A DNA stretch of 53,301 bases. Origin: a virus (Duplodnaviria; Caudoviricetes). The notes under the pieces were generated by a model that saw only the letters and a list, made by a program, of their open reading frames with translations, searched no databases and was not told the DNA's origin. Position numbers and translations under genes: made by a program. Shown here piece by piece: positions 5,753-39,646 of this stretch (positions are counted from its first letter, which is position 1; each line of letters starts with the position of its first letter). The DNA lies in the IMG/VR virus record IMGVR_UViG_3300032297_000671, positions 1-53,301 of that record. The stretch is one strand, 5' to 3'.

Positions 5753-6112
5753 ATGGCAAAAGAATATGTTAGAAATGCGGATTTAATGGCCGCTATCCTT
5801 GAATGTAAGGAAAAGGGCGAATTAACTCCGCGTACTATAAAGATGTTCACGCTTATGATAAACGGAATCTCTAAAAAAATGGCTTATAGAGATCCTGAAG
5901 ATAAGGAAGATTGCATGGCTTTTGCTATGGAGGACTTAGTAAAATATTGGAATAGATTTGATCCAACAAAATCTAATAACCCATTCTCGTACTATACACA
6001 AATTGCAAAGAATGGATTTGCGAAAGGATGGAAAAAAATACATCCACCAAAAGCACCAAAAACAATACCTTTTTCTTACATCACTGGTGAGGATAATTCG
6101 TACAACGTTTAA
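5753..6112 (+). CDS. gp55: T4 gp55-like sigma factor for late transcription
   Basis: YVRN..L and RFDPTKSNNPFSYYTQIAKNGF resemble the gp55 family signature (NFDP.KS.NPFAYFTQI); it sits next to head genes. Confidence 0.85.
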   Translation: MAKEYVRNADLMAAILECKEKGELTPRTIKMFTLMINGISKKMAYRDPEDKEDCMAFAMEDLVKYWNRFDPTKSNNPFSYYTQIAKNGFAKGWKKIHPPKAPKTIPFSYITGEDNSYNV

Positions 6113-6114
6113 GT

Positions 6115-6600
6115 ATGACAGATATCAAGAAAATAAAACCCAATGGGGATTATAAATCTGGACTCTATGTACCAAAAAACCCTGAAAAGTATATTGGTGA
6201 CGTCCATAATATAATTTGTAGATCCTCGTGGGAATTTAGATTCTGTAGATATTGTGATTCGAACGAGAGAATACTCAAATGGAGTTCAGAACCTTTAAAA
6301 ATTCCTTATTATAATCCGCTCGATAAGAAGGAGCATGTTTATAACGTTGATTTTTATATACAGGTTTTACAGGATGATGATAATAAGCAAGACTGGATAA
6401 TAGAGATAAAACCAGAATCACAATTTAAAAGACCCATCCTGGAAGGTAATGCTACTTTACAAAAGCTAAAATCATACAACCATAAAATGCAAGTCTGGAT
6501 TACTAACCAGGCAAAATTCAAATATGCTAAAGAATGGGCATCTGCGAGAGGATACAAATTTGGTGTGGTTGATGAAAATTTTCTATTTAAAAGCAAGTGA
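6115..6600 (+). CDS. gp4: head completion nuclease (T4 gp4-like, TnsA-type fold)
   Basis: Motifs PKNPEKYIGD, RSSWE, WSSE, IPY, H.Y.VDF, IEIKP and N.AK...A..W. Confidence 0.88.
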   Translation: MTDIKKIKPNGDYKSGLYVPKNPEKYIGDVHNIICRSSWEFRFCRYCDSNERILKWSSEPLKIPYYNPLDKKEHVYNVDFYIQVLQDDDNKQDWIIEIKPESQFKRPILEGNATLQKLKSYNHKMQVWITNQAKFKYAKEWASARGYKFGVVDENFLFKSK

Positions 6601-7199
6601 AAAACTTTGCTGAGCAAATAAAGGATTATCAGAACGGAGCTCAATCAATTAGTTCCCTGATACAGAAAACAAATTCTCTTTTTGAAGAAAAATATTTTTC
6701 ACCAAACGGAAAGGGTGAACCTTTAAGTGGTAATTATATACCAGGAAAAATATACACTGGAGAATATCTAACCAAGACAGATCTTTCCGATCGTATTAAA
6801 TTCATAGACAGAAGACCTGTATTTCTTTTTATTTCTGAGGAGAAAGTTAATGGTGAAAATATATTAAAAGGTCTTGATCTTAATATAGTTCCTAATGAAT
6901 ATAGAGCTAAAATTTTGGGATCCTATTTTGATAATTTTATAGGTAAGATTTCAGCGAATTTAAAAAATCCACCATCTTTACAGGAGCCTATATTGATAAA
7001 ATCGGTTTACCTTTCGTCCATCTTTGGTAATGATGGATATAAATTTGCTATGAATGGATTTAAAAAATCATATATGAAGTCTGTTAAAATCATATCTTAT
7101 GATGATTGGTCTAAAATACCTTTCTTAACAGATACACAAATACAAGGACTGACTGTTTCGGCGATATATAATCAATATAAGACGAAATTAAATGCTTGA
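6597..7199 (+). CDS. gp2: DNA end protector protein (T4 gp2-like)
   Basis: IPGKIY..Y, DRRP and GLDLNIVP...R resemble gp2 motifs (PG.MY.F.Y, D.FP, GLNLHYLP...R); adjacent to gp4. Confidence 0.6.
   Translation: MKNFAEQIKDYQNGAQSISSLIQKTNSLFEEKYFSPNGKGEPLSGNYIPGKIYTGEYLTKTDLSDRIKFIDRRPVFLFISEEKVNGENILKGLDLNIVPNEYRAKILGSYFDNFIGKISANLKNPPSLQEPILIKSVYLSSIFGNDGYKFAMNGFKKSYMKSVKIISYDDWSKIPFLTDTQIQGLTVSAIYNQYKTKLNA
7163..7170 (+). promoter_or_regulatory. putative late promoter for the portal genes
   Basis: GATATATA at the 3' end of the gp2-like gene, 63 nt before the portal ATG. Confidence 0.55.
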
Positions 7200-7233
7200 T
7201 TTGGTCTAAAGAAAGATATTGATGTATTAATAG

Positions 7234-8862
7234 ATGGCAGGATTCACAGATAACCCACAAGGAAATCCCATATTTCAAAGAATTAAGGATTCAGTAAAAT
7301 CCCTGAGTAATTTTGGATTAAGGTACGGTGATATGGTCATTAGGAACTCCCAGGCTATCGGTCAGACCGAAGCTGAGTTCATGAAGAAAGGTCCTATCGA
7401 AGATGATACAATGTTGTATTCACTAGGTAGACAAGATACAACAACAAAGCAATTTATTGGTTATTTTGATAAGGATTACGCAGGTAAGAGAGATTACCTT
7501 AGAAAGTTTTCACTAAATCCTGAAATCGAATATATTCTGGATACTGTTTGTGACGAGTCCATAACTTACGATTCCTATAATTTTTTTGCATACCCAGCTT
7601 TTCTTAATCTAACCAATATAAAAGAAAAGGTTATAAATAGAATTGACTCAAACTACAAGAAATTGTATGATATGTTTGGGTTTAGCGACGATAGCACTGC
7701 TTGGCAATATTTCAGGCAGCTTCTTGTTGACGGATTTATCGCATTTGAGATTATTTACGATGACAAGGGTAAAAATATCATAGGATTTAAAGAACTTGAT
7801 GCAACGACATTAATGCCATCTGTAGAAAAACAGAAGGATGGATCTTTTCTTAATGTTTGGTATCAATATCCTAAGGACATTAATAAGAAGAGAATGCTCT
7901 ATGATTCTCAGATAGTCTATATCTCATATGCTAAGGGAAATACAGTTTCCAGGGTTTCTTATGCTGAAAGATTGATTAGACCTTATAACATATTAAGAAT
8001 CATAGAGTATACCCGTGTTATATGGTCGGTAATGAACGCTTCATTCAGGATGAAGATGACAGTTCCTATCGGATCAAGATCACCTCAGAAGTCAATGCAA
8101 ACCTTAGGTGAATTGATGAGTATCTATAAAGAGGATATAAGATTTAATGACGATAGTGGAGAACTTACTGTAGACGGTAGACCGAAAATACAGTTCTACA
8201 AAAATTATCTTATGCCTTCAGGTGTAAATGGTACACCAACTATCGAGCCTTTAAACACTGCGGGTCCTAATCTTAATGATCCCGCTCCATTAGCATATTT
8301 CTTTGACAAATTAGCACAGGAATCAAAAATTCCTTTTTCTAGATTCCAAGGACCGGATGGAGGATCTATAGGTCAATATTCAAATTCTGCAGAAGGACTT
8401 GACAAGGAAGAAATCAGATTTGCAAAATTTGTAACGAGATTGAGATCTATATTTCAGGATATCCTTGTTAAGCCACTATGGATCCAGATGTGTAAGGATT
8501 TTCCGGAGCTTGAAAAGGATTATCTTTTTAAAAGTCAACTTGGATTAACTTTTGTTTCTGATAACCCATTTAGGGTAAATCAAGAAATAGAGACCATGAC
8601 AAAAAAGAAAGAGTCTATTGATAGTCTTTATGGGTTAACTGATGAAGATGGTAAGCCATTCTTTTCTTTAGCTTATCTTATAGAGAGCTATTTGGGTATG
8701 ACTGCTGATGATATTAAGGCTAATGAGGAGGCAAAGAAAAAAAGAAAAGAAGAATTAAAGAAGGAAGGTAAAAGTGAAGAAGCTGCTGCACCTGCTGAGG
8801 GATCTGCAGAACCTGCGGAACCTGCAGAAACACCCGAAACAGAAACACCTCCAGCTGAATAA
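7234..8862 (+). CDS. gp20: portal protein, paralog A (T4 gp20-like)
   Basis: PEIE..LD.VCDESI, FRQLLVDG, SYAERLIRPYNILRIIE...VIW, SKIPFSR and EEIRFAKFV.RLR..F are gp20 family motifs. Confidence 0.88.
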   Translation: MAGFTDNPQGNPIFQRIKDSVKSLSNFGLRYGDMVIRNSQAIGQTEAEFMKKGPIEDDTMLYSLGRQDTTTKQFIGYFDKDYAGKRDYLRKFSLNPEIEYILDTVCDESITYDSYNFFAYPAFLNLTNIKEKVINRIDSNYKKLYDMFGFSDDSTAWQYFRQLLVDGFIAFEIIYDDKGKNIIGFKELDATTLMPSVEKQKDGSFLNVWYQYPKDINKKRMLYDSQIVYISYAKGNTVSRVSYAERLIRPYNILRIIEYTRVIWSVMNASFRMKMTVPIGSRSPQKSMQTLGELMSIYKEDIRFNDDSGELTVDGRPKIQFYKNYLMPSGVNGTPTIEPLNTAGPNLNDPAPLAYFFDKLAQESKIPFSRFQGPDGGSIGQYSNSAEGLDKEEIRFAKFVTRLRSIFQDILVKPLWIQMCKDFPELEKDYLFKSQLGLTFVSDNPFRVNQEIETMTKKKESIDSLYGLTDEDGKPFFSLAYLIESYLGMTADDIKANEEAKKKRKEELKKEGKSEEAAAPAEGSAEPAEPAETPETETPPAE

Positions 8863-8873
8863 AATAAAACGAT

Positions 8874-10478
8874 ATGGCCGGATTTCTAGATAACGTAGCG
8901 GAAAGAACATTCTTAGGTAACCTGTACAAAAACCTATCCAGAATAGGTAAGTTTGGTATGGAGTACCAAGATATGGTTATTAAAAATTCACAGGCAATTG
9001 GTTCGACAGAATCTAATTTTTTTAATGAGCAAGGGAGCGGATTTACTGAGAATGATGCTTTTAGATGGACTCTTGGATATCAAGATACCCAAATTAGAAA
9101 ATACATTGCTTATTTTGATAAGGATTATGTAGGTAAGAGGGATTTTCTTCGAAAATTTTCCTTGAATGGTGAGATTGATTTTATTCTTGATACAATTACC
9201 GATGATTCTGTAAATTACGATGATAAGAATTTCTTTTCTTATCCATCACTAGCAAACATAGATCTTAAGAATAATGTTGTAGATAAGTTGGACGAAACGT
9301 ACAGGAATCTCTATATGCTTTTCGGTTTCCAGCAGAGTATTCTTGCCTGGCAATATTTTAGACAATTCCTGATAGACGGTTTTCTTGCATTTGAGATTGT
9401 ATATTCTACCGATGGTAAAAAAATTGTAGGTTTTAAAGAGCTCGATGCTACTTCACTTCAGCCAGCAACAGAAAAACAACCTAACGGTGAATTCCAGCAA
9501 ATTTGGATTCAATACCCGAATGATAATAAGATGACCAGAAGGTTAAAAGCTGAACAGATTATTTATATTTCTTATGCTAAGGGTAACACAGTCTCTAGAG
9601 TTAGCTATGTAGAAAGATTAATAAGATCATACAATATCCTACGTATAATGGAAAATACTAGGGTTATTTGGAATGTTATGAATGCCTCTTATCGTTTGAA
9701 ATTTGTCATCCCTGTTGGTAGTCAATCACAGCAGAAAGCAATGCAAACCCTTGGGCAGTTAATGTCTATCTACAAGGAGGAAATAGATCTGAATGATTTT
9801 TCCGGAGAATTAACAGTAAACGGTAGACCAAAGGTTCAATTTTATAAGAATTATTTGTTTCCTGAGAAAGATGGACAATCTCCAGATATTTCGACCCTGG
9901 ATCCTAATGGTCCGGATTTTAATGTGATGGAGAACGTTGTTTATTTCTATAATAAACTTAAACTAGATTCAAAAATACCTTATGCTAGATTTGCTTTTAG
10001 AGGGGGTACACCAGCAAATTATCAGATAGCCATAGATCAGCTTGAAAGGGATGAAATAAGATATGAGAAATTCTTAACTAGACTTAGATCAATCTTCCAA
10101 GAAATACTCGTTAAACCTCTTTATATTCAGATGTGTTTGGATTTTCCTGAATTATCAAAGGATAGATCATTTAAGGCTAATTTAGGTCTGGATTTTGTAA
10201 GAGAGAATTTGTTTGAAGAATTAATACAGCTTCAGAATTATACCAAGAGAAGCGATTTTATTACTGCTCTTGGAGGAATGAACCAGAAAATAGGAGAAGC
10301 TGAAACCCCTTACTTTGATAAAGAATTTCTAATAAAAAGATTCCTTGGTATTACTATGGATGAGTTTAGGAAGAATGAAAAGTATAAGGAAAACGAAGCT
10401 AAGGAAGCTAAAAAGGCTGAAAAAGAAGGTGGTGCTACTGAAGAAGGTGGCGGTGGTGGAGAAAGCTTTACTCTTTAA
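8874..10478 (+). CDS. gp20: portal protein, paralog B (T4 gp20-like)
   Basis: Colinear with paralog A throughout: YFDKDY.GKRD.LRKFSLN, FRQFLIDG, YISYAKGNTVSRVSY.ERLIR, SKIPYAR and DEIRYEKF..RLR. Confidence 0.88.
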   Translation: MAGFLDNVAERTFLGNLYKNLSRIGKFGMEYQDMVIKNSQAIGSTESNFFNEQGSGFTENDAFRWTLGYQDTQIRKYIAYFDKDYVGKRDFLRKFSLNGEIDFILDTITDDSVNYDDKNFFSYPSLANIDLKNNVVDKLDETYRNLYMLFGFQQSILAWQYFRQFLIDGFLAFEIVYSTDGKKIVGFKELDATSLQPATEKQPNGEFQQIWIQYPNDNKMTRRLKAEQIIYISYAKGNTVSRVSYVERLIRSYNILRIMENTRVIWNVMNASYRLKFVIPVGSQSQQKAMQTLGQLMSIYKEEIDLNDFSGELTVNGRPKVQFYKNYLFPEKDGQSPDISTLDPNGPDFNVMENVVYFYNKLKLDSKIPYARFAFRGGTPANYQIAIDQLERDEIRYEKFLTRLRSIFQEILVKPLYIQMCLDFPELSKDRSFKANLGLDFVRENLFEELIQLQNYTKRSDFITALGGMNQKIGEAETPYFDKEFLIKRFLGITMDEFRKNEKYKENEAKEAKKAEKEGGATEEGGGGGESFTL

Positions 10479-19874: not shown

Positions 19875-20666
19875 GTGAATACTGTTTTAGATTTTTCGTC
19901 ATATTTTCTTACTGAAGCAAAGATAGGCTCATTTTATAATGATGAGCTAAATCCTAAATTTTGGGATAAGTATACATCAAAAGACGGTAAGGTAAAATGG
20001 GTATTCGATCCTTTGGTTCGAAAGAAGCTTCTTAAAATAGCTGACGATTTCTATTCTAAGTTCGGGGATCTACTTGGAGATCTTCCTATATCTGATATCC
20101 AATTAACAGGATCTCTTGCTAACTACAATTATACGGATCAATCTGATTTGGATGTCCACGTTTTGGTTGATTTCAGCAAGATAAGTAACGATAAAAAAAC
20201 TTTAAAGGCTGCTATAGATGGTATCAGATTCATGTGGAATCTGAGACATGATGTTATAATAAGAGGCCATGATGTTGAGCTATATCTGCAGGATATCAAA
20301 GAACCTCACACAGCATCTGGATTATATTCACTTCAAGATAATAAATGGATCAGAGTTCCTAAATTCGATCCACCAGAAATTGATGAGCAAGATGTGAAGA
20401 AAAAATTCGAATCTATAGTTTCCGAAATCTCGAATTTAGAATCAAAGCTTGTACTTGTTCCAGAATTACCATCGGAAGCGAAAGATCTTTATAAGAGATT
20501 AAATAGGATCAAGGAAAAGGCTCAAAAAATGAGGAAAGAAGATCTAGGATCAAAGGGTGAATTCTCTGTTGGTAATCTCGTCTTTAAAAAGCTCAGAAAC
20601 GAGGGATATATAGCTAAACTGATAGATCTCATATCTAAGTCTTACTCAAGGATTTATTCAGAATAA
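19875..20666 (+). CDS. Pol-beta-superfamily nucleotidyltransferase
   Basis: DIQLTGSLANYNY...SDLDVHV carries the GS and DxD motifs, and DVELYLQD supplies the third acidic residue. The N-terminus MNTVLDFSSYFLTEA is CTS-like. Confidence 0.85.
   Translation: MNTVLDFSSYFLTEAKIGSFYNDELNPKFWDKYTSKDGKVKWVFDPLVRKKLLKIADDFYSKFGDLLGDLPISDIQLTGSLANYNYTDQSDLDVHVLVDFSKISNDKKTLKAAIDGIRFMWNLRHDVIIRGHDVELYLQDIKEPHTASGLYSLQDNKWIRVPKFDPPEIDEQDVKKKFESIVSEISNLESKLVLVPELPSEAKDLYKRLNRIKEKAQKMRKEDLGSKGEFSVGNLVFKKLRNEGYIAKLIDLISKSYSRIYSE
20605..20612 (+). promoter_or_regulatory. possible late promoter for 20680
   Basis: GATATATA 67 nt before ATG 20680, inside the 3' end of the upstream gene. Confidence 0.45.
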
Positions 20667-20679
20667 AAAATTTAAAAAG

Positions 20680-23316
20680 ATGATTCTAGTTTTTAGAAAA
20701 GGCGCTGTCTATAAGGCTACACCAGCCTCAGCAAAAAGAGATACAGTAAAGCCGGAGAATATTTTTCCATTAATGTCATTGCCTCTAAATGCTAAGGGTG
20801 TTGCAACAGATCTTAATGATTTTCAATGGTGGGCATATTCTGATAGATGGGATAAATGGTTAAAAGCTAATCCTAGAGAATGGACAGCTGAATCAATAGA
20901 TCCTGCTAAGTATGATTACAATACATTAAAGGAGGAGCTTGATAATAGAGTTAGACCTCTTACAAATTACATTTCTGATCAGGCATCTAGTCTAATCACT
21001 GGTGAAAAAGCAGTTAGCTTTACCGAGTATATGAAGATCCTCGAATCTAATGAAGAGGAAGCGTCTGGATCTAAAGATGCATTGAAAAAGTATATTAAAC
21101 TTGGATATGCAGTAGATTCCTTGAGAAAATCAGGAAAGCTAAAAACCACAATGGCGGTTTCTTCTCTCGAAGCAGGAAAACCTTATGCAGTGGTGGTTGA
21201 TTTCATGGACGAAACCCAAAAACCGATAGCTGAATCTAGGCAGGCTTTGAGAATGACTAAGATAAAGGAAACTCCGAAACTTGTTCTTGCAAAAGTTGAT
21301 TATAGTATCCCTACCGGAAAAATAGAGGATGAAGTTGATAGCTTTTTGGATAAGGTTATAGACGTTACAAAAAGCGTAGCAATTGCAGGAGTATCTTTAG
21401 CTGCTATCTACGGTGTTGTTCAAGTAGCCGGATCGATATGGGGTGGATGGCAACTATTCAAAACCGGAAATAAAATTTACAATTGGGCTACTAAAAAACC
21501 TGCTATAGAAGCTGCAGCAAAAAGCGGTGGTGGAGCATGGAATGCTATTAAGAATTTTGCAACAACTGCATGGAGTGGAAAAAATGCAGCATCTGTTGTT
21601 AATGCAGCAAGAACTACACTTCCTTCTGGAGCATTTGTTGAAGGCGGACTTGCCTATTCTGCTGAAGGTGTTCTCCTTAGAGGTGCAGCAGCAAACTCTG
21701 TTAAAGCAGCAGCAGGAAGACTAATTGCACAGAACGGTGGTGCAGCAGTTGCAGCAGCAGGAGCCGAAGCAGCAGGAGTATCTGGTATAGTTGCAGCAGA
21801 AGCATCTAACCCGATAGGATGGATAATAGCAGCGGCTTCGATCATAGGATCCGGTGTTAATCAGATATGGAACTGGATGAGTGATAAGCAAGCCCCAAGA
21901 TATTCTGATATCGATAGCTTTGCTTATGGAAGCTTCTCCCCTGGTGATATTCCTGTAGGAAAACCAATTACTGTTTGTTGGACTAGCGACGGTGGAGGTG
22001 GTGGATGGGGATTCGTTGCGGATCTTCTAACATTTTCTAAAGACGATACAAGAACTACAATGGAACTTGTTAAAATTGGAAGCTTTAAAGATAGATCTAT
22101 CTTCCTATTAACTCAGGTTAATTCTAAGGGTCTTCAGAAAATGATGAAGGATAACGATTTAATACTTCTTTCATTTGATAACGGTGATAAGTTCGAAAGA
22201 GGTACATTCGATAATGATGATCTTGAATTTGAAACTATCGCAATACAGGATATAACTAAGCTAACTATTGGAACTTCTTTTGTTGGATACAGCGGATGGG
22301 AAGATATGCAAAGTGCATATAACGAAGCACCCGATTCTGCATTTTATGTACCTGGTGGAGCTAGACAAGAATACCCATTCCACTATGAAAATGCGGAGGG
22401 TAAAAAAGTCAATGTAACAGGAACCCTTGTATCTAAGGATGAGCTTGAAAATATGGACATCGCTAGATTGGTTCCGATCCCGGGTGAGGGTGTTCTAGCC
22501 GAATCTAAATCTATTGTTTATGTAAATTCTTTAAATGAGAATAAATCAGTTCTTTCTTTTGACGAATTCTTTAGCGACAGAAAAGCAATTATGGAAGATG
22601 ATAAATCTGAGGATAATGAGACAGAGGATCAAGCTGAAATGAGTAATTGGTCTAGAGAATTCACCGAAAGAAAATCTTCATCCAACTATAGATCTTCATC
22701 TAGCTACGGACAAATTCCTATGGCTGTATACAAAGTTGATAATCTACAATATGTTGATCCGAATGAGAGTGGAAAAGCAGGAGACTTTTCTTACTATATA
22801 GTAGATCCGGATAGCTTGGATGCTCAACCTGGACAAGCTATTGGTGTTGAATCTGCATCTACTGAAGATGCTATCAACGATCCTAGATTTGGACTTGATA
22901 CTTACGTTAAACCTGAGGTTGAGCAACAGGAAGAGACACCTGAGGAGGAAGAAGTTATCATAGAGCCTGTAGAGGAAGAGCCGGGAGAAGTTATATCAAC
23001 ATCTAAGGGAGATGTTAATATCAGGAAAGGTAAAAATTCAGTAACTATAAAAGACAAGGAAGTTAGTGGAGGTGTTAATATACTTGATGAATTCGGTACA
23101 GATGAACTTAAGAAAGACCTTGCTATCAATAATTGGGATGGAGTTACTTCAGTTAAGCTAAGATACGATCGACTTGGCGAACCCCTTAATGTTATTATTA
23201 AAAATAGAGGAGCTTCTGCTGGAGATAAAAGAAGAGTTATCCGAAGAGGAGAGCTTGGATTTGATGATGCTGTAAAATTTGCAAAGGACGTTGAATCTGG
23301 AATAAAAACGATTTGA
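20680..23316 (+). CDS. large putative virion/ejection protein with Ala/Gly-rich hydrophobic helices
   Basis: Hydrophobic segments VAIAGVSLAAIYGVVQVAGSIWGGW and NPIGWIIAAASIIGSG, plus several [LI]xES sites. It lies directly upstream of the head genes. Confidence 0.6.
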   Translation: MILVFRKGAVYKATPASAKRDTVKPENIFPLMSLPLNAKGVATDLNDFQWWAYSDRWDKWLKANPREWTAESIDPAKYDYNTLKEELDNRVRPLTNYISDQASSLITGEKAVSFTEYMKILESNEEEASGSKDALKKYIKLGYAVDSLRKSGKLKTTMAVSSLEAGKPYAVVVDFMDETQKPIAESRQALRMTKIKETPKLVLAKVDYSIPTGKIEDEVDSFLDKVIDVTKSVAIAGVSLAAIYGVVQVAGSIWGGWQLFKTGNKIYNWATKKPAIEAAAKSGGGAWNAIKNFATTAWSGKNAASVVNAARTTLPSGAFVEGGLAYSAEGVLLRGAAANSVKAAAGRLIAQNGGAAVAAAGAEAAGVSGIVAAEASNPIGWIIAAASIIGSGVNQIWNWMSDKQAPRYSDIDSFAYGSFSPGDIPVGKPITVCWTSDGGGGGWGFVADLLTFSKDDTRTTMELVKIGSFKDRSIFLLTQVNSKGLQKMMKDNDLILLSFDNGDKFERGTFDNDDLEFETIAIQDITKLTIGTSFVGYSGWEDMQSAYNEAPDSAFYVPGGARQEYPFHYENAEGKKVNVTGTLVSKDELENMDIARLVPIPGEGVLAESKSIVYVNSLNENKSVLSFDEFFSDRKAIMEDDKSEDNETEDQAEMSNWSREFTERKSSSNYRSSSSYGQIPMAVYKVDNLQYVDPNESGKAGDFSYYIVDPDSLDAQPGQAIGVESASTEDAINDPRFGLDTYVKPEVEQQEETPEEEEVIIEPVEEEPGEVISTSKGDVNIRKGKNSVTIKDKEVSGGVNILDEFGTDELKKDLAINNWDGVTSVKLRYDRLGEPLNVIIKNRGASAGDKRRVIRRGELGFDDAVKFAKDVESGIKTI

Positions 23317-23350
23317 TAAAAAAACGTCAAATTTTCCGTAAAAGTAAAAA

Positions 23351-23358
23351 GATATATA
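23351..23358 (+). promoter_or_regulatory. putative late promoter GATATATA
   Basis: Intergenic, 25 nt before the protease ATG. Confidence 0.72.
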
Positions 23359-23383
23359 AACTTAAATAAACGATAGTCAACCA

Positions 23384-25396
23384 ATGGGAAATAATCCAAA
23401 TTCATTGAACGAGAATCTATTCTTTATATTAGAAAAGCAAAATGACAATCTTGCCGTTTCTAAAGTAGATTCCGATTCAGGTAAAGAATACATTCTTCAG
23501 GGAATAGCTGCTCAGTTTGGCAAGGAAAACAATAACAATAGAATCTATGAGGAAGGTGAATATCTTCCGCATCTTGACTATTTAAAGGACAAGATCAAAC
23601 AAAAAAGACTCCTAGGAGAATTGGATCACCCAGAAAAGTTTGATGTTTCTTTAAAAAATATTTCTCACGTTATCGACGATTTAGAATACGATAAAGACGG
23701 GAGAGTTCTTAAGATCAAGGTAAAATTGTTAGATACACCTGCTGGTCAGATAGCTAAAAAATTAGTTGATGCTGGAATTCCTTTAAGTATTAGTTCTAGA
23801 GCCGCTGGTCAAGTTGGACCAGATAAAAAGGTTCAAATCAAGAAGATTTTTACGTATGATTTAGTTGCTGATCCTGGTTTTCAAGATGCTCAGCTAGAGA
23901 GAGTTTATGAGTCTGCAGACTTTGTTACGTTCGTTGATCACCAAAAAAATTCAATAATAAACAGTCTTGAATGCGTAAATGAATCATTTGGATTAGAAAA
24001 TGAAAATTCATTGAAGATATATAAAGTTGAAAATAACGAGGAATTCGAAAAACTCTTTAAGTCAGAAGAAAAAAATAAATCCGCTACTATGGAGCAAAAA
24101 GAATATGTGACTGCTGATGAACTCAATAAATATTCTATCTTTTTAAAGAAGAAAATGGATGAGCTTGAGGCACAAATAAATGAAATGAAAAACGATGCTT
24201 CAGTATCTGAAGCTTCAACTGTTACAACTACTGACACTTCTGCTTTAGAAGAAAGGGTAGCTAAGCTTGAGAAATATTCAGAGTATCTTGCTGAAAATCT
24301 AGACGGTGCAATTAAATATGGTGAATATCTTGCTGAGAATCTAGACAACAGCATCACTTACTCTAAGTATCTTGCTGAAAATCTTGATAAGAACATCTCT
24401 TATGCTAAGTATCTAGCTGAGAATGTTGATAAGTCTATTTCATATTCAGAGTATGTTGCTGAGAATGTTGATAAGGCTATCGACTATTCTAAATATTTAG
24501 CTGAGAAAGTTGATGATGGTATTCAATACACAGAATATGTTGCTGAGAACCTTGATAAAAATATCGCTTATTCTGAGTATCTTGCAGAAAACCTAGATAA
24601 AGGTATCGCTTATTCTGAGTATCTTGCAGAAAACCTAGATAAAGGTATTGCTTATTCAGAATACATCGCAGAAAAATTAGATCAAGGAATTCACTTCACT
24701 GAATACCTTGCTGAAAACGTAAACAAGTCGGTATCTTATTCTGAATACATCGCAGAAAACTTAAATAAGGGTATCGCTTATTCAGACTATCTAGCTGAAA
24801 AGCTAAATGGTAACATCGCAGAAACTGAGTCTATCTCAGAGAGCGTAAAAAATGGTAAATCTGTTAACTTGAACGAAAGTGCAAGAGAAAATGCAGAAAT
24901 TATCGCTAACACAGAATTGGTAGAGTCTGGTTTTGCTGGAGATTATAATTCAATCTCAGGCAAAATTGACGCTCTAATTGAATCAGTCAAGACGCAAAAG
25001 ACTGAGGAGAATATAAACGAGGCAAGAACGAAAGTTCAGCCAACTGCTCAAACACAAAAAGCAGATGAGGCATTGAATGAAGGAATTGAATCTAATGTTA
25101 AGTCATCAGGTTACAAGTTTATCGATCAGATGCCAGAGGAATATGCTCAGGTTTGGGAATCCTTAAATGAAAACCATAAGCAATCTATTGTTGCTCAGGC
25201 TTCTTTCTACAATTTGGAAACTCAATATCAGATCAATAACTTCTGGTCTACTAGACAACTTGATACAAAAACAATTGGACTTCAAAAACTTCAAGAAAGC
25301 CAAGAAACACCAGAACCAACAAAAGAAAGCTTATCACCTGCATATTCTAACGACTATGTACAGTGGGTAGCTAAGTCTCTTGAAGGTAAGTTTTAA
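23384..25396 (+). CDS. gp21: prohead protease (T4 gp21-like) fused to scaffold/core domain
   Basis: N.NNRIY, LGELDHP, SHVI, LLDTPAG, ISSRAAG and YDLVADPGF..A, followed by a long coiled-coil/repeat C-terminal region. Confidence 0.9.
   Translation: MGNNPNSLNENLFFILEKQNDNLAVSKVDSDSGKEYILQGIAAQFGKENNNNRIYEEGEYLPHLDYLKDKIKQKRLLGELDHPEKFDVSLKNISHVIDDLEYDKDGRVLKIKVKLLDTPAGQIAKKLVDAGIPLSISSRAAGQVGPDKKVQIKKIFTYDLVADPGFQDAQLERVYESADFVTFVDHQKNSIINSLECVNESFGLENENSLKIYKVENNEEFEKLFKSEEKNKSATMEQKEYVTADELNKYSIFLKKKMDELEAQINEMKNDASVSEASTVTTTDTSALEERVAKLEKYSEYLAENLDGAIKYGEYLAENLDNSITYSKYLAENLDKNISYAKYLAENVDKSISYSEYVAENVDKAIDYSKYLAEKVDDGIQYTEYVAENLDKNIAYSEYLAENLDKGIAYSEYLAENLDKGIAYSEYIAEKLDQGIHFTEYLAENVNKSVSYSEYIAENLNKGIAYSDYLAEKLNGNIAETESISESVKNGKSVNLNESARENAEIIANTELVESGFAGDYNSISGKIDALIESVKTQKTEENINEARTKVQPTAQTQKADEALNEGIESNVKSSGYKFIDQMPEEYAQVWESLNENHKQSIVAQASFYNLETQYQINNFWSTRQLDTKTIGLQKLQESQETPEPTKESLSPAYSNDYVQWVAKSLEGKF
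24089..25396 (+). CDS. putative nested in-frame scaffold protein (435 aa, MEQKEYVT...)
   Basis: Internal GATATATA at 24016-24023 and an A-rich leader AAAAAAATAAATCCGCTACT precede an in-frame ATG at the protease/scaffold boundary. Confidence 0.5.
   Translation: MEQKEYVTADELNKYSIFLKKKMDELEAQINEMKNDASVSEASTVTTTDTSALEERVAKLEKYSEYLAENLDGAIKYGEYLAENLDNSITYSKYLAENLDKNISYAKYLAENVDKSISYSEYVAENVDKAIDYSKYLAEKVDDGIQYTEYVAENLDKNIAYSEYLAENLDKGIAYSEYLAENLDKGIAYSEYIAEKLDQGIHFTEYLAENVNKSVSYSEYIAENLNKGIAYSDYLAEKLNGNIAETESISESVKNGKSVNLNESARENAEIIANTELVESGFAGDYNSISGKIDALIESVKTQKTEENINEARTKVQPTAQTQKADEALNEGIESNVKSSGYKFIDQMPEEYAQVWESLNENHKQSIVAQASFYNLETQYQINNFWSTRQLDTKTIGLQKLQESQETPEPTKESLSPAYSNDYVQWVAKSLEGKF
24272..24817 (+). 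repeat. 13 tandem 42-bp (14-aa) repeats, consensus YSEYLAENLDKGIA
   Basis: Directly visible in both the protein and the DNA. Confidence 0.95.
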
Positions 25397-25419
25397 AAAA
25401 CAAAAAAAATAAAAAAACA

Positions 25420-27114
25420 ATGAAACTAATTAACGAAGCAGAAATCTTCGAAACCTGGTCTCCTATCATCGAGCAGAAGGCTGGAATCGCAGATACTGAA
25501 AAGAAACAGTGGCTTTCTAAATATTGTCACTACCACTCATTGAACGAATCAGCTGGTGCTTATTCTTCTTTGAACGTTGTTAACGGTATGGGTGCAGTTA
25601 CACCTCCTACCTTCCCAACTAACACCAACGCTAACGCTGGTTTTTATAACTCATCTTGGCAAGGATCTGGCGATAAATTCCCTTCACTTCTTCCATTGGC
25701 TATTCAGGTAGCTGCGAAGACTGTAGGTTTTGACATCGTTCCAGTTATCCCTATGTCAGGTCCTACTGGCGTATTGTCATACCTTGACTACGTTTACGCT
25801 GGTGGTAAAATCAGCCCAACTTCTGTTGGTGACACAGCTGCTGATGCTTTAGCTGCTGCTCCTGCAATGATCAAATTGCAAATCACTTCACTTGCTTCAG
25901 GATATCCTGCATCATTTGCGGTTGGTACTACTTACTACATCACTAACGCTTCTTCAGCTGGTGCATACATCACTACTAAATTCGTAGGTCTATCAAGAAT
26001 TGATGGTTACCCTATCTTTAGAGTAGAAGGTGTTACTGCTGGTGAGTCTATCGCAGCTGTTATCGACGGTGGTGCTACTAAAGTTGGTACTTCAATCAAC
26101 GGATCTCAAGCTGGTACTACTACTGCTTCTGCAGCATTAGTTAAAGCTTTAGAAGACCACATCCAAGGTTTCTCTGGTGCTGGTTTCCAAAACAGCGATA
26201 ACTGGCAAGGTCCATTCGTTGACGGTACTAAAACTTACAACCCAATGCTTAGAGCATACGGTGAGAGTAACTACTACCAGTCAATGGGTCTTTCGACTTT
26301 CACTAAGTTCGTTGAGGCTGACACTTTCCAAGTAGCTGCTTCTGTAACTACGGAGCAAATCCAAGACCTTAACAAACAATTCGGTATCGACGTTATCTCA
26401 ATGATCGAGAACGCATTGGTTAATGAGGTTTCACAAGCTATCAACAAGCACATCCTTTCTAGAGGATTCGCTCTTGGATGGTCTAACCACTACGACTTCT
26501 ACACTACAGAAGGACAAAACTTGAACCTTAACCTTGTAATTGGTGGTACTGCAGGTTCATACACTATCCCTTCATACGTAGGTAAAGATGACACTGGTTT
26601 AACTCTTGCTGGAACTGCTGGTCCTGCAACAGGAACTTACGAGAACTTGTCAACTCTTCAGAGAAGATTATTCTCAAGAATTCTTGCTGCTGCTAACGTA
26701 GTTGCTAACAGAGGTAGAAGAGGTCCTGCTAACTTCATCGTTACTAACGCTAACGTTGCAAGTGCATTGCAAGATATCTCTCAGTTCACTTTCGCTCCTT
26801 TCTCTAACACGTTGACTCAGAACAACGGTACATTATACCCTGTAGGTTCACTTGCTGGTATGACTGTTTACGTTGATCAGAACATGACGTTCTCTGATAC
26901 GAGAGTATTGGTAGGTAGAAAAGGTGGTGATGACGAACCAGGACTTAAGTTCATGCCTTACATGATGGCTGAGTCTATTCAGACAATCTCTGAAGGTACT
27001 ATGTCACCTAAGATCGCAGTTAAATCTCGTTACGCTTTAGTAGAAGCTGGTTTCCACCCAGAAACTATGTATTTCTGCTTCAACGTTAACTTGCCTGCTG
27101 GAGGTATCTCCTAA
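25420..27114 (+). CDS. gp23: major capsid protein (T4 gp23-like, HK97 fold)
   Basis: LPLA..VAAKTVGFDIVPV.PMSGPTG, EQIQDL....GID, RGRRGPANFIV, G.LAG.TVYVD, FMPY and P..AVKSRYAL. Codon usage is strongly biased, as expected for a highly expressed gene. Confidence 0.93.
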   Translation: MKLINEAEIFETWSPIIEQKAGIADTEKKQWLSKYCHYHSLNESAGAYSSLNVVNGMGAVTPPTFPTNTNANAGFYNSSWQGSGDKFPSLLPLAIQVAAKTVGFDIVPVIPMSGPTGVLSYLDYVYAGGKISPTSVGDTAADALAAAPAMIKLQITSLASGYPASFAVGTTYYITNASSAGAYITTKFVGLSRIDGYPIFRVEGVTAGESIAAVIDGGATKVGTSINGSQAGTTTASAALVKALEDHIQGFSGAGFQNSDNWQGPFVDGTKTYNPMLRAYGESNYYQSMGLSTFTKFVEADTFQVAASVTTEQIQDLNKQFGIDVISMIENALVNEVSQAINKHILSRGFALGWSNHYDFYTTEGQNLNLNLVIGGTAGSYTIPSYVGKDDTGLTLAGTAGPATGTYENLSTLQRRLFSRILAAANVVANRGRRGPANFIVTNANVASALQDISQFTFAPFSNTLTQNNGTLYPVGSLAGMTVYVDQNMTFSDTRVLVGRKGGDDEPGLKFMPYMMAESIQTISEGTMSPKIAVKSRYALVEAGFHPETMYFCFNVNLPAGGIS

Positions 27115-27137: not shown

Positions 27138-27167
27138 AAACCCCAGGTTTCGGCCTGGGGTTTTTTT
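27138..27167 (+). terminator. intrinsic terminator after the capsid gene
   Basis: AAACCCCAGGT-TTCG-GCCTGGGGTTTTTTT, with a UUCG tetraloop. Confidence 0.93.
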
Positions 27168-27176
27168 GTTTGTATG

Positions 27177-27184
27177 GATATATA
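27177..27184 (+). promoter_or_regulatory. putative late promoter GATATATA
   Basis: Immediately after the terminator and 22 nt before ATG 27207. Confidence 0.72.
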
Positions 27185-27206: not shown

Positions 27207-28316
27207 ATGAAGAGAATATTAAAACATCAGGAATTTTTAAAGAGAAGAGACCTTTATGAACCGATTGACGAGTCCATAATGATGGACCTAATGAACATAT
27301 CGTTAAATGAGGGATCTGTTTTAGATTCTCTTAAAAATTCATTAGATAAAACTATTTTCGGTAAACTTTCTAGACTTTCCATAATTGATAGAATAAGAAA
27401 GAGTAATCTTGAAATTCAGAAGGAGATCATAAACAAAGAATATGACGTAAAGGAGGATATTGCTGCTTTGGAAGTTAAAATGGATACCCTAAGAAAAAGA
27501 GGGGCCGATAAGAAAGATTTTTTGCAGATTGAACAGGAGATAGAAAGGAAAAAGAAAGAATTTTCTTCTTATATAAAAATGCAAAAAGCAAAGATGGATC
27601 AGGGTAGAAATCTCCTTGATAAAACCATCTCTAATAACGAAAGAAGAAGAGAGTATTATGAAGCTGGAGCAGCTGATGATAGATTCGAGATCGCAAAATT
27701 TGAATATGAATTAGCTAAGAATAAGACATCAGATAAAGATGAAGTTGATAAGCTAAAAGTTAAATTTGAGGAAGCTGCTAAAAAGGCAGAGGAGATGATT
27801 AAAAGCTCTATGGATTCTTCAAAGAAATCTTCAAAGAAATCTTTGAATGATAATGATCTCTCCGATCTCTCAGCTTTAAGAAAAACTATCGGCGAAAATG
27901 ATGCTGATACTATCATAGAGTTAAAACAAAAAACTGCTGATAGATCTGATGAATTAAAGAATAAGCTTAAAGATGGTCTTAAAGATTTGACTGATTTTAT
28001 CAAAAAAATGCACATTAAGAAAGTTCCTGTTTCTGATCGAGTTATAGAGAAAAAGCTAGATCCACTAGTTAAGCTTTCCAATGAGATCGATGCCTGTGAT
28101 AATCTATATAAGCTATATAGCAGAATGGGTAAAAGCAGATCTCAGATAGCAAAGAGCATCTCAACGACATCTGCTTTAAGTGATCTTTTCACTAAGATTA
28201 ATAGCGCTATCTTAGATGGTAAAGATGCAGGGTCTGGTTTAACTAGTATGCTTTTGGTTCTTGAGGCTGACCCAACCGCGGATAATATTCAGAAAGTAAT
28301 AAAAAAAATATCTTAA
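27207..28316 (+). CDS. coiled-coil putative internal head protein (paralog of next gene)
   Basis: N-terminus ILKHQEF...IDES...LNEG; Lys/Glu-rich helices. Confidence 0.6.
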   Translation: MKRILKHQEFLKRRDLYEPIDESIMMDLMNISLNEGSVLDSLKNSLDKTIFGKLSRLSIIDRIRKSNLEIQKEIINKEYDVKEDIAALEVKMDTLRKRGADKKDFLQIEQEIERKKKEFSSYIKMQKAKMDQGRNLLDKTISNNERRREYYEAGAADDRFEIAKFEYELAKNKTSDKDEVDKLKVKFEEAAKKAEEMIKSSMDSSKKSSKKSLNDNDLSDLSALRKTIGENDADTIIELKQKTADRSDELKNKLKDGLKDLTDFIKKMHIKKVPVSDRVIEKKLDPLVKLSNEIDACDNLYKLYSRMGKSRSQIAKSISTTSALSDLFTKINSAILDGKDAGSGLTSMLLVLEADPTADNIQKVIKKIS

Positions 28317-28317
28317 G

Positions 28318-29208
28318 ATGCTTTTGAAATTTAAAGAATGGGATAACTCAAACCCAGCAATAAACGAATCTGCTCCATTAGAAAAAATAATGAATTGGCT
28401 TAGCTCCAATTTTGGTGGAACAGTTTCTGAAATTGACGGATTACTTTCTAAGGTGTCTTCAATAGAAGCCCAATATGTAGAAGACTGGAATGATATCCAA
28501 ACCGATATAGATTCACTCGAGGTTAGAAAGGCACAAACAAAATCTGATGCTGCTGAGCTTAAAAAGCTAGAGAGGATGATCGATAGAAATCGTAAGTTAC
28601 TAACTGCTTTACAGAGAAAAAAGAAAGCAGATTTAGAAAAGATTGATGCCAAAGCTGAAAAAATAATCGGTGGCAAATCAAGACTGATTTCATATTGGAA
28701 TCTTAAGAAGGCAGAACTTGAATCAGATATAGCTGAAAAGTTATTTGGTTTATCTAAAGAACTTACAGACGAAAGCATTGCGGATGAACTTTATAATAAG
28801 TATAAGGATGCTGCTTTGGATGCTAAGAAAAAGGATGAAGCTTTTAGAGAAAAATTCGGAAAGCTTGATCTAGCCAAATCTTCTACCATAGAAAAAGAAA
28901 CAGAGTCTATATCTAAATCAAACTTTTCTTTAGACCCTATTCTAGCCATGAATGCTGTCCAGTTTACTAAATATGTTCAGGGGCTAGAAAAATCTCAGGT
29001 TAAGGATCTGATAAAGTTTATAACAAGAGAAAGAAACGAGAAGTATGCAACTCTTGATACAGAGAAAGATAGATTAAAAGACCAGGCTAAGAAAAAAGGT
29101 TTGAGTGATGAGTCTGTTTCTTCTAGCATAAGTGATCTCAGAGAAACCTTGATGGAGCAAATTAGGGATCTAAGAACTAAAATAACTATTGCAAGAAGAT
29201 ATGCGTAA
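28318..29208 (+). CDS. coiled-coil putative internal head protein
   Basis: N-terminus MLLKFKEW...INES; aligns with 27207 around DI..LEV and Y.......IA.....L.K. Confidence 0.6.
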   Translation: MLLKFKEWDNSNPAINESAPLEKIMNWLSSNFGGTVSEIDGLLSKVSSIEAQYVEDWNDIQTDIDSLEVRKAQTKSDAAELKKLERMIDRNRKLLTALQRKKKADLEKIDAKAEKIIGGKSRLISYWNLKKAELESDIAEKLFGLSKELTDESIADELYNKYKDAALDAKKKDEAFREKFGKLDLAKSSTIEKETESISKSNFSLDPILAMNAVQFTKYVQGLEKSQVKDLIKFITRERNEKYATLDTEKDRLKDQAKKKGLSDESVSSSISDLRETLMEQIRDLRTKITIARRYA

Positions 29209-38995: not shown

Positions 38996-39646
38996 ATGGA
39001 ATGGCTGAAAAAGATTTTTTCAAAGAAGAAAAAAATGGACTTTAAAGATAAAACACTGCCTGAGCTTCAGGAAGAACTCTCACAATTTGACTTTACTTGG
39101 ATTAAAGGCGATCAGATGGGAAATATTGAAAGATATGACGATGTCGTATCTGACGAAACCACAGGCATGACATTCGTTTGCTTTAAAAGTGGAGGAAGAA
39201 TTAACATAGAACTACTTAGTGAATATCTAGATCCATTCCCAGCTACTAAAGTAAACTATGGAAATGTTACAGAATCTGCTCCAATCCAAGCCCCTCAACT
39301 AGATCGAATCCATCAAGATTCCCCGCAGAAGTCTCAGCGATCAGGAAGCAATCAGGTTTCTTCTGTTGAGGTTGAGGATTCCCCGATATATACATTGCTT
39401 AAAAAACAGAAGACAAATTGGGTTAATGTAAACATAAGCCTGAAGTTGAATCTACCTTCTAAGAGTCTTTATGGTATCCTAATAAATTCTTTTGATGAAG
39501 CAGAAAGCGAAATTATAGACTATGTAACAGAGGGTATTGACATAGAAGATATTAGAAACGCTCTTGGAGATTCTATTTCTGCTTATTATGATAAGAAAAA
39601 GTCCTCCAGTGTAGTAAGTGAAAAAAACAATTCCGAAGATGAATAA
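38996..39646 (+). CDS. hypothetical protein
   Basis: 216-aa ORF with an amphipathic N-terminus MEWLKKIFSKKKK. An alternative start is MDFKDK. Confidence 0.7.
   Translation: MEWLKKIFSKKKKMDFKDKTLPELQEELSQFDFTWIKGDQMGNIERYDDVVSDETTGMTFVCFKSGGRINIELLSEYLDPFPATKVNYGNVTESAPIQAPQLDRIHQDSPQKSQRSGSNQVSSVEVEDSPIYTLLKKQKTNWVNVNISLKLNLPSKSLYGILINSFDEAESEIIDYVTEGIDIEDIRNALGDSISAYYDKKKSSSVVSEKNNSEDE

Follow-up and report, generated by a model that had tools for sequence, protein, structure and literature searches.

The locus described here raises the question of whether a single phage gene, in which a prohead protease is fused in frame to a putative scaffold, yields one protein or two. It lies at 23384..25396 on the plus strand of the IMG/VR virus record IMGVR_UViG_3300032297_000671 (Duplodnaviria; Caudoviricetes), which stems from an uncultured freshwater phage; the window analysed is the whole contig of 53,301 nucleotides (nt), with 35% G+C and genes nearly all on the plus strand. 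The full-length open reading frame (ORF) encodes 670 amino acids (aa), or 75.8 kDa. From the letters alone, an earlier note had drawn attention to an 8-mer, GATATATA, within this gene and had suggested that it forms the late promoter of a nested scaffold gene. This suggestion is now supported by comparative evidence, namely an invariant box, an invariant ATG and the sole dip in synonymous change of the gene, and we consider it likely that the locus gives rise to two proteins with a common C-terminus: the protease-scaffold fusion, and the scaffold alone, which would be expressed from the internal promoter and the ATG at 24089.

By its matches, the N-terminal part of the product is a prohead protease of the T4 gp21 type (S77). 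The 670-aa ORF matches Pfam Peptidase_S77 (PF03420) over residues 29-145 with 33.8 bits (cut-off 27), the S80 family over residues 41-170 with 25.5 bits (cut-off 23.4) and phrog_207, head maturation protease, with an E-value of 7.4e-40; the domain itself occupies 23384..23914 on the plus strand, approximately residues 1-177. BLASTP of this part against T4 gp21 gives an E-value of 3e-08 and aligns GELDHPE to GELNHPP and SISSR to GVSSR, pairing His82 (23627) with His85 of gp21 and Ser137 (23792) with Ser140, two residues that we take to be catalytic in the T4 protein. Both are invariant among the 49 homologue sequences introduced below, and the structure 5JBL is matched by the protease part with an E-value of 0.022. 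The domain is followed in the protein by a linker, by thirteen 14-residue repeats and by a C-terminal helical part. As only 23 nt (25397-25419) separate the stop codon from the ATG of a capsid gene of the Gp23 family, no gene lies between the two, and the earlier note was right in stating that protease and capsid are not separated by a gp22-like gene.

The internal 8-mer (24016..24023, plus strand) is written in the codons Lys211(AAG)-Ile212(ATA)-Tyr213(TAT)-Lys214(AAA) of the linker, C-terminal to the protease domain, whose S77 and S80 matches end at residues 145 and 170. An A-rich tract (24065-24088) leads directly to an in-frame ATG at 24089, codon 236 (Met236) of the 670-aa ORF, which opens a 3'-coterminal frame for a putative free scaffold (24089..25396, plus strand; 435 aa, 49.2 kDa, pI 4.43) ending at the shared stop at 25396; all of these positions agree with the earlier description. 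In the window, GATATATA is present in 13 copies, all on the plus strand, against an expectation for both strands of 4.56 +/- 2.21, and 13 copies were reached in 0 of 100 shuffles. Nine of them are found in spacers, 21-39 nt 5' of the start codons of head, tail and other genes, and the box at 23351..23358 (plus strand) lies 33 nt before the protease-scaffold ATG. The other four are located within ORFs, at 7163, 20605, 24016 and 39385. Synonymous codon shuffling of 50 ORFs predicts 3.3 +/- 1.5 sense and 1.9 antisense copies within ORFs, where 4 and 0 are observed, respectively. Therefore, the copy at 24016 is not separable from chance in this genome alone, and the caveat of the earlier note, that one 8-mer may occur by chance in AT-rich DNA, was justified at that scale.

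A T4 gp55-like late sigma factor, the likely reader of the box, is encoded at 5753..6112 on the plus strand by an ORF that matches phrog_234, 'late sigma transcription factor', with an E-value of 1.3e-14 and reaches 23.1 bits against Sigma70_r2, just below the cut-off of 24. In the spacer promoters of relatives, the 8-mer alone is conserved (two spacer classes, with 43 and 41 distinct sequences), which, together with the presence of a gp55-like sigma, agrees with a late promoter of the T4 type consisting of one box only. The features of such promoters, a single 8-bp AT-rich box with no -35 element shortly before late genes, are all found here, with a word that is not the TATAAATA of T4.

What cannot be told from one genome becomes visible among its relatives. 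A scan of IMG/VR gave 72 loci with best-segment identities of 61-84%. The whole gene was present in 66 sources (65 loci and the window), corresponding to 51 distinct nucleotide sequences, of which two were dropped to leave 49; left out were L043 and L053, where the contig ends within the gene, L061 and L076, which lack the junction region, and 15 loci whose gene is identical to that of another locus. These 49 sequences, to which the following counts refer, are 62-79% identical to the window protein and fall into 34 clusters at 95% nucleotide identity, 27 at 90% and 19 at 85%. In their codon alignment, G-ATA-TAT-A is invariant (49/49), and 24016-24023 is the sole run of at least eight invariant nucleotides in this gene of about 2 kb. 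Both edges of the box are retained where the amino acids change. Codon 211, 5' of the Ile, is AAG in 40 sequences, ATG in 7, AGG in 1 and CGG in 1, but never AAA, and codon 214, 3' of the Tyr, is AAA in 38, AAG in 5, AAT in 4, AGT in 1 and AGA in 1, always with A as its first letter; Lys211 is thus replaced by Met or Arg, and Lys214 by Asn, Ser or Arg, while the flanking G and A stay. By contrast, AAA is the Lys codon in 39 sequences at position 223, in 49 at 230 and in 42 at 232.

The two central codons are equally strict, Ile212 being ATA and Tyr213 being TAT in 49/49, although these homologous genes use ATA for 20% of Ile and TAT for 65% of Tyr (and AAG for 36% of Lys). Among 220 alignment columns with an invariant degenerate residue, five keep one codon in all sequences, and four of these (Ile212, Tyr213, Lys230 and Glu240) fall within codons 205-241. 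These figures bear on the explanation that the 8-mer arose by chance in AT-rich coding DNA and is retained because the protein needs Ile-Tyr. Such an explanation agrees with the chance-level count of copies within ORFs and with the conservation of Ile-Tyr in the proteins of distant relatives as well. However, outside codons 205-241 one codon is used throughout the alignment for just 1 of 210 invariant degenerate residues, whereas this holds for both Ile212 and Tyr213, and the flanking G and A outlast amino-acid replacements; we find a chance word barely credible. By this alignment, selection acts on the copy at 24016 at the level of DNA itself. The earlier note had asked whether box and Met are conserved in the nucleotides of homologues, and for each the outcome is clearly positive (49/49).

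The constraint is not limited to the eight letters, but it is confined to one part of the gene. Pairs of sequences with the same residue differ in codon in 0.45 of cases gene-wide and in 0.38-0.56 in 15-codon windows, except over codons 201-245. All of the 25 lowest 8-codon windows (of 578) lie within codons 205-241, and the lowest value, 0.066, is reached at 24014-24037. This sole zone of suppressed synonymous change (23996..24106, plus strand; codons 205-241) extends from just 5' of the box to just past the ATG at 24089, and we infer that it comprises the promoter, the predicted leader and the start region of a nested gene. An overlapping feature, either an antisense gene or a structured RNA, might impose a similar constraint, and an antisense ORF of 139 aa (23938..24357, minus strand) does overlap the site in the window. 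Nevertheless, the length of this antisense frame ranges between 53 and 146 aa in the 49 sequences, the alternative frames are open across the zone in only 25 and 33 of them, and the constrained zone covers 110 nt, not 420. A search of 23300-25500 against Rfam yielded no family (best E-value 0.9), and the predicted leader showed no excess folding compared with shuffles (z -0.04), so that the fold is no better than that of shuffled sequences. We hold an overlapping feature to be extremely improbable.

At the 3' end of this zone, the ATG at 24089 is invariant (49/49) and the next codon, 237, is GAG in 48/49; the constraint extends into this region, with AAA, AAT and AAA at codons 230-232. In 42 of the 49 sequences, the ATG at 24089 is the first ATG in any frame 3' of the box. 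Its surroundings are rich in A, with a fraction of 0.56; the values are 0.47 for true starts and 0.34 for internal ATGs.

The other copies of the word help to read the one at 24016. Box placement was compared in the loci of 48 relatives, each of 5.5-8 kb, where the 8-mer occurs at syntenic places only: before the gene for an 878-aa protein, before the protease ATG, inside the protease-scaffold gene and after the capsid gene. The box before the protease ATG (19-36 nt 5' of it) and the internal one (at +620 to +650) are present in 48/48, and no minus-strand 8-mer was found in these loci. The box at 20605-20612 is situated at the 3' end of the gene preceding the 878-aa gene, 75 nt 5' of the start of the latter, and is written as GGA-TAT-ATA (Tyr-Ile). 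It is kept in 44/44 distinct sequences, and the constraint there concerns the 8-mer only, as codons on both sides vary normally (0.3-0.8). Since the constraint at 20605 ends with the 8-mer, the additional constraint over 24016-24106 points to a leader and a start site.

The box at 7163-7170 (Ala-Ile-Tyr-Asn) likewise falls within the 3'-terminal part of the gene upstream, 71 nt 5' of a portal gene. A search for relatives with the ORF 6597..7199 confirmed none; when relatives were gathered through the neighbouring portal gene, the box was kept in 45/46 distinct upstream regions, 66-73 nt before the portal ATG. This portal gene belongs to a tandem pair of paralogues (7234..8862 and 8874..10478), both matching phrog_213 (E-value about 1e-56) and 53% identical over 505 residues, and two portal genes in one phage are unusual. 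The fourth copy, at 39385-39392 in the ORF 38996..39646 (Pro-Ile-Tyr-Thr), had been picked as a presumed chance copy but proved to be conserved, and is thus a further positive rather than a control: it is kept in 11/11 relatives with 53-63% protein identity, as CCG-ATA-TAT-A(CA, GC or GT). No in-frame Met is found 3' of it and the next gene starts at 39618, about 230 nt away; from its conservation, it is probably another promoter written in codons. As all four copies within ORFs are conserved and none of the approximately five chance copies expected (sense and antisense) is present, the word is seemingly purged elsewhere, which suggests that GATATATA is removed where it is not a promoter. On a bold and less likely reading, this lineage would routinely write its late box into codons, as Ile-Tyr or Tyr-Ile, and purge the word elsewhere, in which case every copy would be a working promoter.

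The capsid gene that follows has no box of its own. The major capsid protein of the Gp23 family is encoded at 25420..27114 on the plus strand (PF07068, E-value 7e-41), behind the A-rich spacer (25397..25419, plus strand) that runs over 23 nt from the scaffold stop to the capsid ATG. No promoter box was found in this spacer, nor in the scaffold-to-capsid spacers of 48/48 relatives, which measure 14-35 nt. Since the capsid gene is devoid of its own box in this clade, an upstream promoter is needed, and the gene is probably co-transcribed from both the 23351 and the 24016 promoters; this fits the idea, put forward by the earlier note, that the internal promoter feeds capsid mRNA. A terminator-like hairpin with a T-run (27138..27163, plus strand; 11 pairs, 6 of them G-C) is the sole one on that strand between 23200 and 27300. 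In the capsid protein, Leu41-Asn-Glu-Ser is invariant among relatives and is a candidate site for propeptide cleavage. Motifs of the form [LI]-N-E-[SG] or L-T-E-A are also seen within the first 12-41 residues of the ORFs 2906, 17373, 19875, 25420, 27207, 28318 and 37957, and such N-terminal motifs may belong to capsid-targeting leaders trimmed by the protease. Directly 3' of the capsid gene, the ORFs 27207..28316 and 28318..29208 encode proteins rich in lysine, glutamate and aspartate and have their own box at 27177; the latter shows a weak match to a T7 capsid assembly protein (E-value 0.003, under the cut-off), and no family was otherwise found for either.

Beyond these relatives, the closest public genomes are 'uncultured phage' assemblies of 460-735 kb (LR756500-LR756504 and LR745206), Lak phages being more distant. 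In 5/5 genes of huge phages examined, a fusion of protease, repeats and C-terminal part is followed by the capsid gene, and the Met equivalent to Met236 is kept in 5/5 of these genomes. A second clade, composed of 51 distinct homologues of the LR756502 type, has an invariant Met (51/51) and a degenerate box site. There, the site is mostly AGG ATA TAT GAA, giving GATATATG, and most sequences have either GATATATG or GATATACG; TAC replaces TAT in 8 sequences and the synonymous constraint is partial. The exact ATATATA is found at the junction in 3/51 sequences, so that 48/51 are without an exact internal box, and it is present in the region upstream of the protease in 50/51 and in 42/48 of the capsid spacers, which are 37-88 nt long. 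Internal and capsid-proximal boxes are thus complementary between the clades, but the pattern is not clean within the second one, where 40 sequences have a capsid-proximal box only, 6 have neither, 2 have both and 3 are unscored. Further away, the protease ORF of Prevotella phage Lak-A1 (3414..5168, code 15) encodes 584 aa, in which a protease domain is joined by a long acidic linker to a C-terminal domain bearing a similar F-W motif; it has no 14-residue repeats, and the capsid gene is not adjacent. As the Lak-A1 protease likewise carries a C-terminal extension, such an extension is old in this supergroup.

Three features suggest that the C-terminal part acts as the scaffold: its place upstream of the capsid gene, its composition and its cleavage motifs. 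Between 24284 and 24829 (plus strand), thirteen tandem units of 14 residues (12 strict units and a 13th) follow the consensus YLAENLDKxIxYSE with a period of 42 nt, and each contains one [LIV]-A-E motif. T4-type proteases cut after Glu in motifs of the [LIV]-x-Glu kind (PMC5694885). The nested product contains 26 [LIV]xE motifs, compared with 11.0 +/- 2.9 in 1000 shuffles (maximum 21), and several are found in the linker and scaffold part. Structure prediction of the full-length 670-aa protein is poor (mean predicted local distance difference test score, pLDDT, of 46.4), with long helices at 283-390 and 401-487 over the repeat region at low confidence (pLDDT below 50). When the last 160 residues were modelled with 60 sequences, the pLDDT was 62.9 overall and a small helical bundle was predicted with confidence. 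This conserved domain near the C-terminus (25115..25249, plus strand; residues 578-622, pLDDT 83-86), in which P, W, S, Q, F, W, T and R are invariant across both clades, is a candidate for the capsid-binding end. When 7118..7924 of the T4 locus was compared with window 24089..25393, a segment of T4 gp22 (EWLAEN..VDKGIK) proved to resemble the repeat unit (EYLAENLDKGIA), with a non-significant BLASTP E-value of 1.8-2.5; a gp22-like motif may have been the origin of the repeat array, or the likeness may be due to chance.

Several observations weigh against the reading in which this gene makes a fusion and a free scaffold. Besides the count of copies within ORFs, which matches the chance expectation when this genome stands alone, the constraint over 24024-24060 is not accounted for. 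In 7 of the 49 sequences, an out-of-frame ATG occurs 8-20 nt from the box start. The start-site profile is weak, as ATG 24089 ranks 36th of 289 internal in-frame ATGs with a weight matrix built from 38 ATG-initiated genes, the discriminating power of which is small. Moreover, the Met is no less invariant in the second clade with its mostly degenerate box, so that its conservation alone is no proof of initiation. Two freshwater metatranscriptome runs contain 16-17% of the sampled words, in contigs of relatives that are mostly less than 95% alike; these RNA contigs cover the 3' part of the scaffold and the capsid gene, and one spans the junction (24879-25557), but being assembled contigs of relatives they show neither start, strand nor level, and the stretches that they leave uncovered carry no weight. 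On the protein side, the nested part gave only repeat-driven or sub-threshold matches to Pfam and PHROGs, and no scaffold family; BLASTP against T4 gp22 (E-value 1.8) showed no similarity to that family, and no known scaffold was matched in fold searches with the C-terminal model, neither by Foldseek against the PDB (no match at an E-value of 0.001 or better) nor by VIA-align wide, where the best Z of 3.4 lies inside the noise for helical models. The two ORFs 3' of the capsid gene, 27207..28316 and 28318..29208, could likewise be core or scaffold proteins.

Some of these points would suit another arrangement, in which the internal box is a promoter for the capsid gene only, the scaffold is freed from the fusion by self-cleavage as in gpO of phage P2, and Met236 is structural. 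The lack of a box before the capsid gene in 48/48 relatives, the invariance of Met236 also where the box is degenerate, the middling start-site profile at 24089 and the several [LIV]xE motifs in the linker and scaffold are all in its favour. On the other hand, a transcript beginning near 24030 would carry an open frame of 1.3 kb whose first ATG is the in-frame 24089 in 42/49 sequences, and the synonymous constraint runs on through the ATG region, whereas at 20605 it ends with the 8-mer. We regard a promoter that serves the capsid gene only as distinctly unlikely.

Conversely, the scaffold might be produced solely by internal translation initiation on the full-length mRNA, as for lambda C/Nu3 and the archaeal virus HFTV1, the 8-mer being kept for some other DNA-level reason. 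The Met is indeed retained in both clades and in 5/5 huge-phage genomes, including those without an exact box, and the nested phage scaffolds described so far are under translational control, according to a preprint (bioRxiv 10.64898/2026.09.13.751334). Yet the word is identical, and on the same strand, to the box standing 21-39 nt before nine genes; all four copies within ORFs are conserved and no other role for the word is known; and an upstream promoter is needed in this clade, which has no capsid-proximal box. Translation alone is, in our view, a very unlikely explanation.

If the gene does make both proteins, expression would proceed as follows. The box at 23351 would direct a full-length mRNA encoding a 76-kDa fusion of a gp21-type serine protease with an acidic, helical scaffold built of repeats. 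At 24016, the late RNA polymerase holoenzyme with its gp55-type sigma would initiate a second mRNA near 24030, and the first ATG of this mRNA (24089) would give a 49-kDa protein consisting of the scaffold only. Both mRNAs would include the capsid gene and end at the terminator at 27138, so that the internal promoter would raise scaffold and capsid together relative to protease. The scaffold part of the fusion would carry the protease into the procapsid, where, after assembly, it would cut the repeats at [LIV]-x-Glu and trim the capsid protein at Leu41-Asn-Glu|Ser.

Many elements of this scheme are familiar from T4, whose protease belongs to the same family (gp21 versus the window protein, BLASTP E-value 3e-08). 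The gene order is the same: in T4 (NC_000866), the protease gene 21, a gap of 30 nt, the scaffold gene 22, a gap of 18 nt and the capsid gene 23 succeed each other, where the window has a scaffold-capsid gap of 23 nt. Both phages combine an 8-bp AT-rich late box with a gp55-type sigma, using GATATATA in the window and TATAAATA in T4. The earlier note had opposed the nested layout to T4 as a phage with separate genes 21 and 22, which is true of the genes, but leaves out that a T4 late box sits at their junction: placed over the stop codon of gene 21 and 28 nt 5' of gene 22, TATAAATA corresponds in position to the internal box of the window. A promoter at this place is therefore what a T4-type layout would predict, and the departure from it is the in-frame fusion. 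Unlike in T4, the junction of the window gene has no stop, so that the putative scaffold continues the protease frame and the predicted promoter and leader form part of the coding sequence. T4 further possesses a second late box inside gene 22, 135 nt 5' of gene 23, whereas none is present near the capsid gene in the clade of the window. T4 gp22 and the scaffold part of the window protein share no detectable homology (E-value 1.8). The T4 record NC_000866 also carries the annotation 'internal transcription and in-frame translation' for gene 17. About 100 : 576 : 960 copies of protease, scaffold and capsid protein are reported for T4 (PMC5694885).

The layout itself resembles that of herpesviruses. 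In UL26/UL26.5 of herpes simplex virus 1 (HSV-1), in other herpesviruses and in Ostreid herpesvirus 1 (OsHV-1), one ORF encodes a maturation protease at its N-terminus and a scaffold at its C-terminus, as the window gene would with its putative scaffold. These viruses have a shorter, in-frame and 3'-coterminal scaffold gene with its own promoter inside the ORF; the frame opened by the ATG at 24089 behind the box at 24016 would be its counterpart in the window. The scaffold transcript of OsHV-1 is about 10-fold more abundant (PMC11565193), and the T4-type protease is reported to have the fold and catalytic residues of the herpesvirus protease (PMC5694885). The hosts and the transcription machinery are different, since herpesviruses rely on Pol II with a TATA box and the window on bacterial RNA polymerase with a phage late sigma. 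The window also departs from herpesviruses in that its scaffold is an array of 14-residue repeats and its capsid gene would be co-transcribed downstream.

Nested scaffolds are also known in lambda (C/Nu3) and HFTV1 (gp17/gp17.5), where the scaffold is encoded in frame by the 3' portion of the protease gene, as proposed for the window. In the preprint on HFTV1, the nested scaffold of that virus was found by ribosome profiling, the scaffold exceeds the protease in both viruses with a ratio set at translation from one mRNA, and the two proteases are weakly similar to each other and to that of HSV-1; its Figure S27 lists nested protease/scaffold cases and may include more phages (bioRxiv 10.64898/2026.09.13.751334). 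The window differs from lambda and HFTV1 by a conserved promoter box 5' of the internal start. gpO of phage P2, according to that preprint, combines an N-terminal protease and a C-terminal scaffold domain in a single polypeptide (bioRxiv 10.64898/2026.09.13.751334), as the window gene probably does; gpO is made full-length only and its parts are freed by self-cleavage, whereas an internal promoter box and ATG are conserved in the window. In the limited literature searched, we found no description of an internal promoter or a nested scaffold in a gp21-type protease gene.

Taken with its T4-like promoter and order of genes, the locus most likely represents the 21-promoter-22 layout of T4 fused in frame into a herpes-like nested scaffold. 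A history in which the in-frame fusion of an assemblin-fold protease to the scaffold, with a promoter and start in its linker, was the ancestral arrangement of the head module of tailed phages and herpesviruses, so that T4 genes 21 and 22 arose by fission at that place and UL26/UL26.5 would be homologous rather than convergent, is conceivable but rather unlikely. Two textbook layouts are linked by the locus, as the 21-promoter-22 arrangement of T4 without the stop codon of gene 21 becomes the UL26/UL26.5 arrangement of herpesviruses; this bears on the evolution of the head module in this virus realm as well as on how the ratio of protease, scaffold and capsid protein may be set. The locus also provides a clean case of a probable promoter kept inside codons, with one invariant 8-mer in 2 kb over 49 sequences, a signature that could help to find internal promoters when uncultured phages are annotated. 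For huge phages, the nested frame offers a concrete and testable scaffold candidate.

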